Below, piece after piece: positions 38,030 through 42,128 of a stretch of DNA of 42,128 nt. Made by a program: the position numbers and the translations under genes. The notes under the pieces were generated by a model. The model was not told the origin of the DNA. It saw only the letters and a list, made by a program, of their open reading frames with translations, and did not search any database. The stretch lies in UHGV virus genome UHGV-0155081; one strand, given 5' to 3'. The stretch's first letter is position 1. Each line of letters begins with the position of its first letter. Origin of the DNA: a virus.

Positions 38030-40675
38030 ATGACAGACATTACAGCCAATGTTGTAGTGAGCATGCCTTCGCAACTCTTCACTATGGCCCGCTCTTTTAA
38101 AGCCGTAGCCAATGGCAAAATTTATATCGGTAAAATTGACACTGACCCGGTAAATCCTGAAAACCAGATTCAGGTTTATGTAGAGAACGAAGATGGTTCT
38201 CACGTTCCTGTTGCACAGCCAATCGTCATCAATGCCGCAGGGTATCCAGTATATAACGGACAGATTGCCAAATTCGTTACCGTGCAAGGCCATTCTATGG
38301 CTGTTTATGATGCGTATGGTGCACAGCAGTTCTATTTTCCTAATGTGCTGAAGTATGACCCGGATCAGTTTAAACAAAAAGTATTATCAAATGATATGCT
38401 AAATATGTCTCCTCTTTATTTTGGAGCTAAGGGGGATGGGATTAGCGATGATACTGAAGCATTTGTCGCGTTGGAAATGGATATAAAAAATAGGGTTATT
38501 GATTTAAGTGGAAGAGCATTTTTTGTTACTAAAAGTTTTATTGGAAATAGCTATATAAATGGTTCTTTTATTCGTGATGGCAGTAAACGAATTGCGATTG
38601 GTGATCTTAAATTAAGAGATAAAAGAGAGCCATTGATATTTTCCGGAATGCCAAAAGTATATAACACCAGACACACGTTGCGCAGAACTGAAGGTGCGGG
38701 TGGTTTATATGCGGTCATTCAGGGGTGTTGTTATGATGAAATTAACGACAAGATTTTTACTTTATCATCTACCACAGCATACGGTTATTGCATTAATGCC
38801 TTTGACGTGACGAATTCTGGTGAACTAGGAAGATACGACAGAACCCGTTCTACTGAACTTGGGCATCAGGGGCTTGGATTGCATCATAATCCTGATGGTA
38901 CTGTCGTGCTGTGGACATCGAAGCCTTATGGAACCGATGCCGCCAATCAATGTATTTCGATGGAAAATATATTGAGTTACACAGGGACAACCAACGGAGT
39001 ATCTGAAGGTTTTATCACCTGGAAGTTGTTCCCCTATGATGGAATGAGCGCAAGCTCTACTCCAACTGTATCAAGTTGTGAAAACTATCTACTTGCCAAG
39101 AAAATTTCATCGGATGGAATTACCTGCACGGTTCGTGTTTTCGACATAGTCAGCATGTGGAATAACAGAGCTCATAAAACTGATTATAGTGATGATTATT
39201 TAGTTGAGTTTAGCTATCAAAAACCATCACAAGAAGCATTTACCCAATCAATTGCTTGCGATGGGGCATACATTTACATACTTGAGTCACATACGTATGT
39301 TGGCATGACTAATTATATTTACGTATTTGACTTAACAGGCAGGTTTATTGAGCGAGTAGATATTTCAACTGTTGGTGATGATGAAGCAAAATCTGACAGT
39401 ACAGGAACTCCTGTTTATAAAGAGCCTGAGTCCCTAACAGTAATTAGAACGGAGAGTGGGTATGTTTTAACGCTGGGGATATGCACATATAAAGGAGTTG
39501 CTGAGAACGGGAAAAATGTATATCTGTTTGATATAGGCAGGTCTGGTTCGGTAGTGCAAAGCAAAGCAAGCCGTTCTGTATCCAGTAATACTGGTCTTCA
39601 TAGTTCTGGCTCCCCGGAGTTCAAATATGGAGTAAGGGAGTACAATGATACTTTTCACTGGACAGTTTGGCCAACAAGAAAGGGTATTCAAACTAACCGG
39701 GATAACCCTATATTGTTTCTTGATGGCGGAATTACTGGTGGAATGCAGTTAGCTTCAAACGGCACGGAAGGGATGAGCAACTCATGGGTTTCCCGGCATC
39801 AGTCAGACACCGCAGAAGGACCAAGAGCAATAATGTATAAGTCTCGCTCTGGTGTTGTATCAACTGATAATTTTGGAGCTCTGCAGACAGGGGATGTATT
39901 GGGTACTCATGTATGGGCCGGTGATACAGGTAGTAAGGCTGTGCAATGCGCACACATTAAATGCGTCACAAGAGGTAATCCTTCCGGAGACAATATCCCG
40001 GTTGCTTTCTACTTTGGAACCATGGGAGAGAGTGACGGCTTGCGTGACAGATGGGTATTAACAGAATTAGGTCATTTTCGACCATCAGGTTCAAATCTTT
40101 ATGATATTGGTACACAGTCGAATACTGTCAGAAACCTGTATATAAATAATAGCCCCATTGTAACCAGCGACAGAAATTATAAGCAGGATGAAGCTTCATT
40201 ATCTGATGCAGAACTACGGGTTGGAATGGCTATTTACCCGCTGATAAAAAAATTCAGAATGAAGGATGCTGTAAAAGAAAAAGGCTTGTCAGCGCGTGAG
40301 CATATCGGTGTAATTGCGCAAGATATACAATCCATCTTTGAATCTGAGGGGCTTGATGCATTTTCTTATGGGGTTCTTTGCTATGAAGAGTGGGATGATG
40401 AGTATGAGAAAGTCTATGCAACAAGAAATGTGACCAGAAAAATTTTAATTGATGAAGAGTCTGGTCAGTATGATGAAATCACAGAGGAAGAAGAGTATGA
40501 AACTGGTGAAGTAAGGTTAATTATGGAATCAGGAAGAAAATTATCAGTGCGCTATGACGAGTTAATGTTTCTGGCAATGAGCGCACTATATCATCACCAT
40601 GAGCAGGATATTGCCAATATCACATCAAAGATTAATAATCTGGAAAAATTATTAAAGTTAACACTAAATGGTTGA
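38030..40675 (+). CDS. Tailspike: P22-type head-binding domain, beta-helix-like centre, C-terminal chaperone-like domain
   Basis: 881 aa; first ~110 aa match P22 gp9 head-binding domain; [15 protein letters not shown] beta-helix cap motif; C-terminal GVIAQD region resembles S74 intramolecular chaperone domains. Confidence 0.85.
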
Positions 40676-40696
40676 TATGTGGTACTTTTAATGTAT

Positions 40697-40715
40697 GCCC
40701 AGCTACATGCTGGGC
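40697..40715. terminator. Hairpin between convergent tailspike and glycosyltransferase genes
   Basis: GCCCAGC-tacat-GCTGGGC; weak U-tracts on both sides. Confidence 0.35.
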
Positions 40716-40721
40716 AATGTT

Positions 40722-41837
40722 TTAAATTTCAGCTATAAAACCTTCATAATTATTTTGTAAAAAAGGTTTGATGAACTTACGCTGAGGGGTATAAATCATA
40801 TCCTGATTTACTAAATCTGAGCGGATATTGAAAGTGGTTGAGAGCATGTTAAAGAACATCCTTTTCTTTTGCTCGTTGCCACCTGCTTTACCACATACCT
40901 TTTCCATCATTTCAAGGCATATCACCAGCCACGCATTGTAAAGCTTGGCCTTTTCTTCGTTAGTTTTTCCGCAAAAGTAAATCGTGTTAATAACCGAGTT
41001 AAGAATGAAGTGTCTATCTTCAAGAGGAAATTTTTGCCTTGATAAATGACCATTACCATGGAATGTTAAATGATAATAATCTTTGTCAGCAAGAATAGAT
41101 ATATTGTTTGCTACAGATAGAGATTGAACCATAAATATTTTATCTTCAGCTACGGTGATAGCTGGGTTGAAGAGAATGTTATGCTCTTTAAGCATATTTC
41201 TTCGGAAGAATTTGAAAATAGTTAACGACCGCAAGAGGTGATGCTTGGTTATATCTGCCTTATCTACAATTTTCACCTTGTATGGACGGATAGGCACCTC
41301 GCGATTACCATCTGATGCAATTTTGAAGTAAACAATATCACTATTATTTTTATCAGCAATATGAACCCCTCTCTCAAGAAGAGTTTCGTCAATATAGTCA
41401 TCGGAATCCATGAAGAAAATATAACGCCCTTTTGCTGCTTTTATCCCCTCATTTCGCGGGGTTGAAGCGTTACCTGAACCAATTTCTCGGCGAATAATTC
41501 TGTAGTTAATATCCGGTGCTATATTATATTCTATAGCAGCAATGCTTTTGTCACTTGAACAATCATCGACAAAAATAACCTCAAAGCGATCCTTATTAAT
41601 TGTTTGGTTATTAAGTGAGTTAATGCATTTAAGAATAAGTTTTTCACGATTATGAACAGGGATAACAACTGACACATCTAATGGGCAAAAATGGTTAATC
41701 TCATTAACTACAGTCGTTATTTTAGTAAAAGCCGCCAACAAAGCTGTTGTTAAATCAGTAGAAGATAAAAGGCTTTCTTTTTTAGTATTAGCTTTTATGT
41801 TAAAATAGAACCAATTATTACGAGGTACAAAATCCAC
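40722..41837 (-). CDS. Family-2 glycosyltransferase body (likely surface-polysaccharide modification), frame-separated from its leader
   Basis: 371-aa ORF; GT-A motifs (VVIPVHNRE...FVDDCSSD...FFMDSDDY); begins only at a GTG 9 nt after the repeat tract; about 30% GC. Confidence 0.8.
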   Translation of the reverse strand: MDFVPRNNWFYFNIKANTKKESLLSSTDLTTALLAAFTKITTVVNEINHFCPLDVSVVIPVHNREKLILKCINSLNNQTINKDRFEVIFVDDCSSDKSIAAIEYNIAPDINYRIIRREIGSGNASTPRNEGIKAAKGRYIFFMDSDDYIDETLLERGVHIADKNNSDIVYFKIASDGNREVPIRPYKVKIVDKADITKHHLLRSLTIFKFFRRNMLKEHNILFNPAITVAEDKIFMVQSLSVANNISILADKDYYHLTFHGNGHLSRQKFPLEDRHFILNSVINTIYFCGKTNEEKAKLYNAWLVICLEMMEKVCGKAGGNEQKKRMFFNMLSTTFNIRSDLVNQDMIYTPQRKFIKPFLQNNYEGFIAEI

Positions 41838-42078
41838 GCTTACAAATGGCTGGCTGGCTGGCTGGCTGGCTGGCTGGCTGGCTGGCTGGCTGGCTGGCTG
41901 GCTGGCTGGCTGGCTGGCTGGCTGTGAAATCTAATGCAAATTTTACCCCTTTATATTCGAAGTCAATAACGAAGCAGTTCTCATTGTATAACCATGTTTT
42001 TTTTATGTGGTCACGCAGTGTTGTTTTCTCAAAGAACTCAACTATATTTTCAGAAATAGCAGTAATATCAGTTTTCAT
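41818..42078 (-). CDS. Leader ORF: 52 codons + repeat-encoded (ASQP)n + 9 out-of-frame codons
   Basis: ATG at 42078 with RBS AGAGG; reads through the repeat and stops at 41818..41820, 19 nt into the GT2 frame. Confidence 0.5.
   Translation of the reverse strand: MKTDITAISENIVEFFEKTTLRDHIKKTWLYNENCFVIDFEYKGVKFALDFTASQPASQPASQPASQPASQPASQPAICKRGFCTS
41847..41922. repeat. Perfect tetranucleotide tract (TGGC)19 on + strand, in the 5' region of the glycosyltransferase locus
   Basis: Counted directly: 19 uninterrupted units, 76 nt; encodes (ASQP)n in the leader ORF. Confidence 0.97.
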
Positions 42079-42128
42079 TGTACAACCTCTATTGTTAGCA
42101 ATGTTTATTGGTATTCAAAAATAAGGCG

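Follow-up and report, generated by a model that had tools for sequence, protein, structure and literature searches.

The gtrABC and oac genes of P22-like phages lie after the tailspike gene at the prophage end, and P22 gtr is switched epigenetically by Dam/OxyR. In Haemophilus influenzae, the lipooligosaccharide genes lic1, lic2A, lgtC and lex2 contain a 4-nt repeat in the 5' coding region that turns them ON or OFF by reading frame. In phage CUS-3 the neuO gene is located next to the spike gene. The CUS-3 tailspike is an endosialidase, and NeuO is a phase-variable O-acetyltransferase switched by a repeat in its coding region (PMC3046976, PMC13001214). Here we describe a tailspike gene and a convergent, repeat-containing glycosyltransferase gene at the right end of the UHGV virus genome UHGV-0155081; this stretch of 42,128 nucleotides is analysed at its full length and is called the window below. 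The two genes very probably constitute a receptor module with a glycan-modifying enzyme switched by a simple sequence repeat (SSR). The best overall reading, to which we assign a probability of about 0.6, is a module similar to CUS-3/NeuO that recognises and phase-variably glycosylates a teichoic-acid-like capsule.

The original prediction considered the glycosyltransferase to be repeat-switched, and the reading frames bear this out: a perfect 4-nt repeat inside the convergent gene of the GT2 family sets the frame. From the ATG the frame passes through 51 codons into the CCAG tract and then reaches an early stop codon, and the GT2 body is encoded in another frame that ends at 40722. In a frame simulation, loss of one unit (17) or gain of two units (20) fuses both parts; other lengths tested terminate early. 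This copy, with 18 units, is OFF, and one length class in three (17, 20 and so on) joins the N-terminal domain to the enzyme body. The internal GTG annotated as the start of the body is not preceded by a Shine-Dalgarno sequence or other ribosome-binding site. The promoter of the glycosyltransferase gene lies past the window end. We modelled a repeat-less orthologue (P0016), which is 92% identical in the enzyme body and is not the window protein itself; the predicted local distance difference test score (pLDDT) of the model is 91. In this model the repeat site falls in a loop between two strands of the N-terminal alpha/beta domain, and therefore variable (ASQP)n insertions may be tolerated. Orthologues without the tract read GCCAACCAGACA at the repeat site, which on sequence grounds is a plausible proto-repeat, and two database homologues have just one to two ASQP repeats.

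The length of the tract differs between closely related alleles. The P22-like alleles with identical flanks have 18 units in the window, 46 in strain C (NZ_CP029371) and 69 in GMF054. The 5' half of the gene, 80% identical and with the leader and tract in common, is also found in P2-like prophages beside yegQ, including the defective prophage of E. coli B. Within the near-isogenic E. coli B family the assemblies have 7 units (REL606), 10 (AS19), 21 (ATCC 11303, in frame) and 35 (the laboratory 'B' parent), and six drug-resistant derivatives of this parent have 35, 35, 35, 34, 34 and 45 units, the 45-unit allele being in frame. The overall range in assembled loci of other genomes is 7 to 69, and all changes are in whole units. 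RefSeq annotation alternates between one and two open reading frames (ORFs) in step with the tract length, and the annotated full-length ON alleles come from the P2-like gene version (ATCC 11303 and B-DolR). The BL21 assemblies gave no match to the glycosyltransferase query, and the gene is apparently lacking there. As judged from the assembled sequences, the tract is hypermutable and has the pattern of a contingency locus. The repeat also generates a spurious plus-strand ORF encoding (AGWL)n (41846-42124 in the window; L001:11817-12299 in GMF054), which RefSeq calls a hypothetical protein and whose length follows the repeat number.

The enzyme body resembles transferases that act on wall polymers of Gram-positive bacteria. 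By sequence, the closest PDB proteins are TarS of Staphylococcus aureus (E 9e-38) and the prophage enzyme TarP (E 6e-32), with ~27-30% identity; a DSDD motif at position 223 and an AED motif at position 309, which supply the DxD motif and the predicted catalytic Asp, are aligned to TarS. The top 45 PDB matches in a fold search with the P0016 model were TarS, TarP and Listeria RmlT only, with TM-scores of 0.78-0.85 over the whole TarS and TarP chains (0.84 for TarP), acceptor-side region included. No hydrophobic or transmembrane segment was found in the window protein. Sequence and model thus assign the enzyme to the soluble cytoplasmic GT2 transferases of the TarS/TarP/RmlT type; TarS, TarP and RmlT all decorate poly-ribitol-phosphate. 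Weaker PHROGs matches carry the label 'GtrB-like O-antigen conversion', which reflects the shared GT2 domain only. Membership in that group was rejected, as this is a lone soluble gene versus a three-gene set of GtrA, GtrB and GtrC with membrane proteins.

The central part of the spike had been proposed to be a glycan-degrading, beta-helix-like domain. The AlphaFold model built with 12 homologues, which is confident over aa ~126-505, has twenty strands in five four-stranded sets; this model and two fold searches give a five-bladed beta-propeller in place of the beta-helix and rule out a depolymerase of the beta-helix type. The top Foldseek match is the receptor-binding protein (RBP) of Staphylococcus phage phi11 (5efv, E 3e-14), followed by the RBPs of phages 80alpha, NF5 and P68. 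Endosialidases appear in the same list at E ~1e-10 with a TM-score of just 0.25, and the blade count of five disagrees with a six-bladed sialidase. In the second fold search the five-bladed propellers span lectin-like binders and the GH43/32/68 hydrolases. The nearest structural relatives are non-enzymatic binders, so that degradation of a glycan by the spike is unsupported, and a catalytic function seems to us rather doubtful. The closest solved fold, phi11 Gp45, binds glycosylated ribitol-phosphate teichoic acid. At the sequence level, aa 120-680 have no match to any solved structure in PDB. Several homologues of the middle part pass the Pfam family PF21311 ('phage 5-bladed beta propeller receptor binding platform'), including P0002 (80% identity over the query domain, 32.3 bits) and the distant P0012, P0014 and P0011 (28-32% identity). 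The conserved propeller motifs are GHQG, Q.IACDG.YIY and EPE.L. The PHROG label 'colanic acid degradation' (phrog_8280, aa 1-414) was not taken as evidence, since it is an inherited annotation and no other pointer to colanic acid was seen.

The spike is a chimera, and both of its ends are as originally predicted, with a P22-type head-binding domain at the N-terminus and an intramolecular chaperone at the C-terminus (Table 1). RefSeq labels the 99.9%-identical copies 'phage tailspike protein'. The PDB matches of the head-binding domain are the N-domains of the Sf6 and P22 tailspikes (E 2e-65 to 1e-44), and this domain is the sole part in common with other P22-like spikes. The chimera has a sharp boundary: the match is confined to nucleotides 1-341 (aa 1-114) in about 1170 E. 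coli genomes and in 27 phage records, HK620, Sf6 and CUS-3 among them, and the remainder of the gene is present in 4 of the 5426 complete genomes of our collection. Homologues of the middle part bear four different virion adaptors, namely P22 head-binding, TSP1/Gp66-N, T7 fibre-N and endosialidase-N. The window protein itself does not match the linker family PF12218 at E<=0.01. Downstream of the propeller, aa 506-680 are poorly modelled by AlphaFold; the stalk region as a whole has 71% identity in the Leclercia and SU10-like homologues, and its aa 681-712 align with the stalks of the solved spikes 6eu4 and 3gw6. The chaperone matches those of an endosialidase (3gw6, E 1.5e-12), the phi29 appendage (3gud) and the T5 fibre (4uw8). 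It begins with an SDRNYK motif at aa 713 and, by analogy with the Peptidase_S74 family, is predicted to be cut off at Ser713.

Table 1. Coordinates of the features of the spike and glycosyltransferase module in the window, and of related capsule-locus genes
Feature	Location	Strand	Basis
Tailspike gene, 881 aa, chimera of four or five modules	38030..40675	+	open reading frame
P22-type head-binding (virion adaptor) domain, aa 1-113	38030..38368	+	Pfam PF09008 Head_binding, E 9e-67, full profile
Linker resembling endosialidase N-terminal extension, aa ~126-205	38405..38644	+	homologues match PF12218 End_N_terminal at the aligned position
Five-bladed beta-propeller, predicted receptor-binding domain, aa ~206-505	38645..39544	+	predicted model and two fold searches
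Beta-rich distal/stalk region, aa 506-712	39545..40165	+	low-confidence model, pLDDT 31-67
C-terminal intramolecular chaperone, Peptidase_S74	40166..40672	+	Pfam PF13884, E 7e-8, aa 713-774
GC-rich hairpin, likely terminator	40696..40716	.	between the convergent stop codons; 8-bp stem with 6 GC pairs, then T-run
Full glycosyltransferase gene, phase OFF here, ATG at 42078	40722..42078	-	in-silico frame test; 450 aa at 17 units, 454 aa at 20
GT2 catalytic and acceptor body, 371 aa from annotated GTG 41837	40722..41837	-	PF00535, E 1e-31
(CCAG)n contingency repeat, 18 full units, 100% perfect	41847..41924	-	Tandem Repeats Finder (TRF), 19.5 copies; (ASQP)n when in frame
N-terminal 51 codons 5' of the repeat, start of conserved alpha/beta N-domain	41925..42078	-	kept in repeat-less orthologues
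Shine-Dalgarno GAGG, 7 nt upstream of ATG 42078	42086..42089	-	sequence
Region-2 propeller protein (kps loci)	REL606 ECB_RS14905, L032:20551-21510; Leclercia metagenome-assembled genome, L036:13711-14700		PF21311

The pairing of the two genes is found in several temperate backbones. In P22-like prophages a spike with the propeller and S74 chaperone is directly followed by a convergent homologous GT2 gene at three integration sites, namely torS-torT, argW/intS and a third one; in the prophage at the third site an IS3 insertion sequence (IS) element has removed the 5' end of the glycosyltransferase gene. A long-tailed prophage of Leclercia W6 encodes a spike 74-79% identical and a glycosyltransferase 57% identical to those of the window, the latter without the repeat. 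The same layout is present in a prophage of a Leclercia metagenome-assembled genome (MAG) and in a metagenomic prophage with an integrase. In P2-like prophages the glycosyltransferase is paired with a 952-aa fibre that ends in an S74 chaperone and whose middle part shows a distant homology to the propeller, with 24% identity (E 1e-5 to 1e-6). The leader and repeat are 94-96% identical between the P22-like and P2-like versions of the gene, and the C-terminal half is ~40% identical. Two contigs that we read as lytic, an SU10-like phage and a large myovirus, have propellers with 69-77% identity and no glycosyltransferase gene after the spike. The presence of the pair in temperate backbones and its absence from these two contigs argue for a functional link in lysogens. 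Among the isolated phages in INPHARED, nucleotide matches are limited to the head-binding domain, and the module was found in none; at the protein level, the propeller has its best match in the N4-like phage Pollock, with 26% identity, and the enzyme in TarP or Listeria phage glycosyltransferases.

Some copies of the module deviate from this layout. The glycosyltransferase of the Leclercia MAG (L008:8982-11375) has 797 aa, with the homologous GT2 part placed after an additional N-terminal region of ~350 aa. Two of the four copies in complete genomes are damaged by IS elements: CUVM3 (L005:11843-13071) has IS3 in place of the leader and repeat, and in GMF054 (L001:1433-2601) IS911 truncates the prophage.

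The probable target was sought in the capsule loci. E. coli AST215, Campylobacter coli (where the identity is 49%) and a metagenome contig each have a family member with the N-domain inside an ABC-transporter-dependent kps locus, with genes for TagF-like polymerases and CDP-ribitol synthase as its neighbours. In E. coli B, region 2 of the kps locus contains genes for a TagF-like polymerase and two hypothetical proteins, and a CDP-ribitol synthase gene that IS1 has split. This B-type region 2 is present in 51 of the 5426 genomes versus 18 of the 30 genomes with the glycosyltransferase prophage, against a chance expectation of 0.28 (Fisher p = 9e-31; 4e-14 after a rough clonal collapse into lineages made approximately, by eye). 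It is found in three of the four genomes with the exact spike (strain C, CUVM3 and CPww7) and in five lineages with the P2-like version of the transferase. Both Leclercia genomes with the spike-glycosyltransferase pair encode a TagF-like polymerase (67-90% related), and the kps-type locus of the Leclercia MAG comprises KpsD, KpsM, KpsT, a TagF-like polymerase, CDP-ribitol synthase, KpsC and KpsS.

A second link to the same loci comes from the propeller. Region 2 of E. coli B and Leclercia encodes a ~320-aa signal-peptide protein, annotated as hypothetical, that matches PF21311 (E 2e-15 and 6e-15). The Leclercia protein is 28% identical to the spike propeller over 250 aa (E 3e-17); the similarity of the E. 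coli B protein to the spike is weaker (29% over 83 aa, E 3e-6). These proteins and the phage propellers have the invariant GHQ, Q..DG.Y and E.E.L positions in common. The relatives of the transferase, the family members resident in kps loci, the content of the B-type region 2, its enrichment, the Leclercia locus, the region-2 propeller and the Gp45-like fold are seven lines that point to a ribitol-phosphate capsule as the substrate probably shared by spike and transferase. Teichoic-acid-like and ribosyl-ribitol-phosphate K antigens (K2, K18, K22 and K100) and TagF-like capsule polymerases are established, and the primary papers on them are cited in PMC13171606.

Two kps-resident transferases have features of their own. 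The C. coli GT2 gene (L020:8001-9317) is conserved in its capsule locus beside the CDP-ribitol synthase and TagF-like genes, and the kinship of its product across phyla, which was measured over the glycosyltransferase body, fits the very low GC content of the E. coli phage gene (0.345). The AST215 gene (L022:11784-14023) is placed between kpsS and region 2 of its locus; its leader contains a stop codon, the repeat is lacking, and it adjoins a 129-nt fragment annotated as 'tail fiber assembly protein', which suggests gene traffic between phages and capsule loci. The ribitol-type locus of AST215 was considered as a general partner of the prophage gene and rejected, because just 2 of the 5426 genomes have it; the association is with the E. 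coli B type.

Several observations weigh against a ribitol-phosphate capsule as the common target or against the switch as described. The GMF054 genome contains a 99.9%-identical module, yet it has another kps region 2, with genes for an AlgX-like acetyltransferase and a Kdo transferase; in this genome the module is part of an IS911-disrupted prophage remnant. Twelve of the 30 genomes with the glycosyltransferase are outside the list with the B-type kps. The kps association could be inflated by shared ancestry. The identity of the C-terminal acceptor half of the transferase was compared with that of the propeller, and no clean correlation emerged, so that co-variation of the two was discarded as an argument. 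The window propeller itself scores 16.9 bits with PF21311, below the gathering cut-off of 23.7. The three P22-like alleles seen are all OFF, which is compatible with chance ((2/3)^3 = 0.3), and the repeat counts come from assemblies, in which single cases may be assembly errors. The original prediction that spike and transferase act on one glycan and form a conversion or superinfection barrier is upheld in part: the pairing in at least three temperate backbones, the orientation of both proteins towards ribitol-phosphate and the kps enrichment support it, and its claim that the spike degrades this glycan found no support.

The GMF054 genome, with the module and without a ribitol-type kps locus, would suit a classical O-antigen or lipopolysaccharide (LPS) module. 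In that case the receptor of the spike would be the O-antigen or the LPS core, as it is in P22, Sf6 and HK620, and the transferase would act in the cytoplasm on the undecaprenyl-linked O-unit or on the core. The position of the gene after the tailspike at the prophage end, which is that of gtrABC and oac, and the PHROGs label of the weaker matches agree with such a function. However, the transferase is a lone soluble enzyme with no GtrA or GtrC partners and no transmembrane segments, its nearest relatives are ribitol-phosphate transferases acting at the polymer level and kps-resident genes, the enrichment for one kps type is strong, and a homologue of the spike propeller is encoded within that same locus. 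We therefore consider the O-antigen explanation unlikely, although it is the strongest of the alternatives to a capsule-directed module.

For the capsule-directed module we propose the following mechanism. The spike would dock on the virion via its P22 head-binding domain, present the propeller, and fold with the help of the chaperone, which would be cleaved later. The target would be an ABC-transporter-dependent (group 2, kps) teichoic-acid-like ribitol-phosphate capsule, as in E. coli B. The polymer of group 2 capsules is finished at the cytoplasmic face and then exported by KpsMT, so a soluble TarP-like enzyme could decorate it there. In a lysogen, the transferase may add a sugar side-branch to the polymer during its assembly at this face. 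Slipped-strand mispairing would alter the tract length and lead to stochastic expression of the transferase, such that the exported capsule is side-branched in cells with an in-frame tract and native in the others. The modification may change recognition of the capsule by this and related spikes, creating a barrier to superinfection and to other phages, and may alter antigenicity too. Phase variation would keep both capsule forms in the lysogen population as a form of hedging.

Provided that the substrate is a ribitol-phosphate capsule, the modification is likely to mask the receptor rather than to create it, by analogy with NeuO. With the opposite sign of the effect, the propeller would need the sugar decoration as phi11 needs N-acetylglucosamine (GlcNAc) on teichoic acid, and ON cells would be the susceptible ones; Gp45, the closest structural relative, binds glycosylated teichoic acid, and the present data would fit either sign. 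Nonetheless, sensitising its own host or trapping its own progeny would run contrary to the characterised conversion modules, none of which is known to do so, and the apparently lytic contigs with the same propeller carry no transferase. The NeuO modification is protective, as capsule O-acetylation raised survival against a lytic K1 phage (PMC13001214). A receptor-creating enzyme is thus improbable. Least probable of all is an incidental adjacency with an unrelated AT-rich moron. In its favour, morons generally land beside tail-fibre genes, after the tailspike in P22-like phages and after H/G in P2-like ones, and the transferase and the receptor-binding domain differ in GC content and recombination history. 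Against it, the same glycosyltransferase family accompanies an RBP with propeller and S74 chaperone in at least three backbones and two genera, always convergent and immediately adjacent, and both partners are independently associated with ribitol-phosphate capsule loci.

In the window, torS (50-2794, minus strand) precedes a P22-like prophage of ~39 kb. At the right end of the prophage the ejection protein genes are followed by an immI-type region, which encodes a P63C-domain protein, Arc-type regulators and an Ant antirepressor with P22_AR domains, and then by the tailspike and glycosyltransferase genes. In E. coli GMF054 the same end-module is placed between torS and torT, and therefore the window should stop ~0.9 kb before the host junction. 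We conclude that the module probably belongs to a temperate phage of the P22-like group with its integration site between torS and torT. The exact prophage is absent from the complete E. coli genomes of the collection.

The region from about 38400 to the window end was originally described as a low-GC island. Its GC content is indeed markedly low (0.386 at 38400-42128 vs 0.472 at 1-38399, every other 3.7-kb segment having at least 0.415), but the fall already begins at ~32.7 kb, with 0.427 at 32721-38029. The region is also uneven: GC is 0.386 in the propeller, 0.371 in the chaperone, 0.345 in the glycosyltransferase and 0.305 in the leader. A single island is not what we find, since the receptor-binding domain has a mosaic history separate from that of the transferase and the two do not form one transferred unit. 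In a scan, promoter sites were no more numerous in the island than in shuffled sequence. Further upstream, the gp16-like gene has a GC content at third codon positions of 0.335, so that the entire right arm of the prophage is compositionally atypical, beyond the spike and transferase. A 75-aa ORF with two strongly hydrophobic stretches (34841-35068, minus strand) is flanked by the gp16-like ejection gene and the gene of the P63C-domain protein; in P22 this slot is occupied by superinfection-exclusion genes.

In a wider view, which we offer tentatively and hold at slightly less than even odds, temperate phages of Enterobacteriaceae with three tail morphotypes share a portable two-gene system directed at ribitol-phosphate capsules, and this system mirrors the wall teichoic acid (WTA) system of S. 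aureus in its Gp45-like RBP, TarP-like glycosyltransferase and polymer. The phage propeller would be derived from or akin to the secreted propeller of the kps loci, and the E. coli transferase would have gained a portable (CCAG)n cassette that recombines between P22-like and P2-like phages. We found no description of the module or its CCAG tract, nothing relevant on REL606/BL21 and none on SSR switches in E. coli prophages in the searchable literature, the coverage of which is incomplete, so that an earlier description is possible. If the portable system exists, the tract would be among the few repeat-driven contingency loci in E. coli, gone unnoticed in the laboratory strains of E. coli B; the module would be a second case of the CUS-3/NeuO type with different chemistry, in which a prophage reads and stochastically rewrites the host capsule; and TarP-type polymer glycosylation would extend to Gram-negative capsules. 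If correct, the reading would also assign a receptor, in testable form, to a so far uncharacterised propeller RBP family present in several phage types, with possible use in host-range prediction and in capsule-targeted phage or depolymerase work. The analysis further identifies a secreted propeller protein in ribitol-phosphate K loci. The hypermutable tract in the E. coli B lineage alters annotation between assemblies and could confound variant calling, and variation of capsule side-branches could affect K-serotyping and immune recognition.

Among the known systems, CUS-3/NeuO of E. coli K1 is the nearest to the module. Both are located in a P22-like prophage whose spike joins a P22 head-binding domain, a capsule-directed domain containing a propeller and an S74 chaperone, and in both the same prophage encodes a capsule-modifying enzyme switched by slippage in a coding-region repeat, which is translated as a peptide when ON. 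The copy numbers vary widely in both (2-93 in neuO vs 7-69 in the assembled loci here). The enzyme is a GT2 transferase here and a left-handed beta-helix acetyltransferase in NeuO; the repeat unit is 4 nt long and the tract lies ~51 codons into the gene, in a loop of the N-domain, whereas in neuO the unit is 7 nt long and the tract starts directly behind the start codon; the propeller is five-bladed and similar to phi11 Gp45, in contrast to the six-bladed sialidase of CUS-3; and the capsule would be a ribitol-phosphate polymer instead of polysialic acid. Unlike in CUS-3/NeuO, the switch and enzyme are also found in P2-like prophages.

TarP, the prophage-borne WTA GlcNAc transferase of S. aureus whose relative TarS is chromosomal, is likewise a soluble GT-A enzyme with conserved DxD and AED motifs, and the logic of altering a ribitol-phosphate polymer recognised by phages and antibodies would be the same. 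The enzyme described here has an extra N-domain of ~110-130 aa with the repeat, is phase-variable and is encoded beside the phage's own RBP; in a Gram-negative host, its polymer would be a capsule and not wall teichoic acid. The RBPs of phi11 (Gp45), 80alpha, P68 and NF5 (PF21311), which are the best PDB matches by a clear margin, have the same five-bladed propeller platform in a trimeric tail RBP. Their identity to the window propeller is 11-14%, and here the propeller is mounted on a P22 adaptor with an S74 chaperone and has signal-peptide homologues in enterobacterial capsule loci. P22 gtrABC and Sf6 oac occupy the same place on the prophage map, and there too the phage alters the glycan used by its own spike; those genes encode membrane proteins working at the periplasmic face, as opposed to one cytoplasmic enzyme and a DNA-repeat switch. 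Finally, the lic1, lic2A, lgtC and lex2 loci of H. influenzae are surface-glycan genes with the same type of 4-nt repeat near the 5' end of the coding sequence, whereas the switch described here is phage-borne and is found in Escherichia, where repeat-driven switches are rare.

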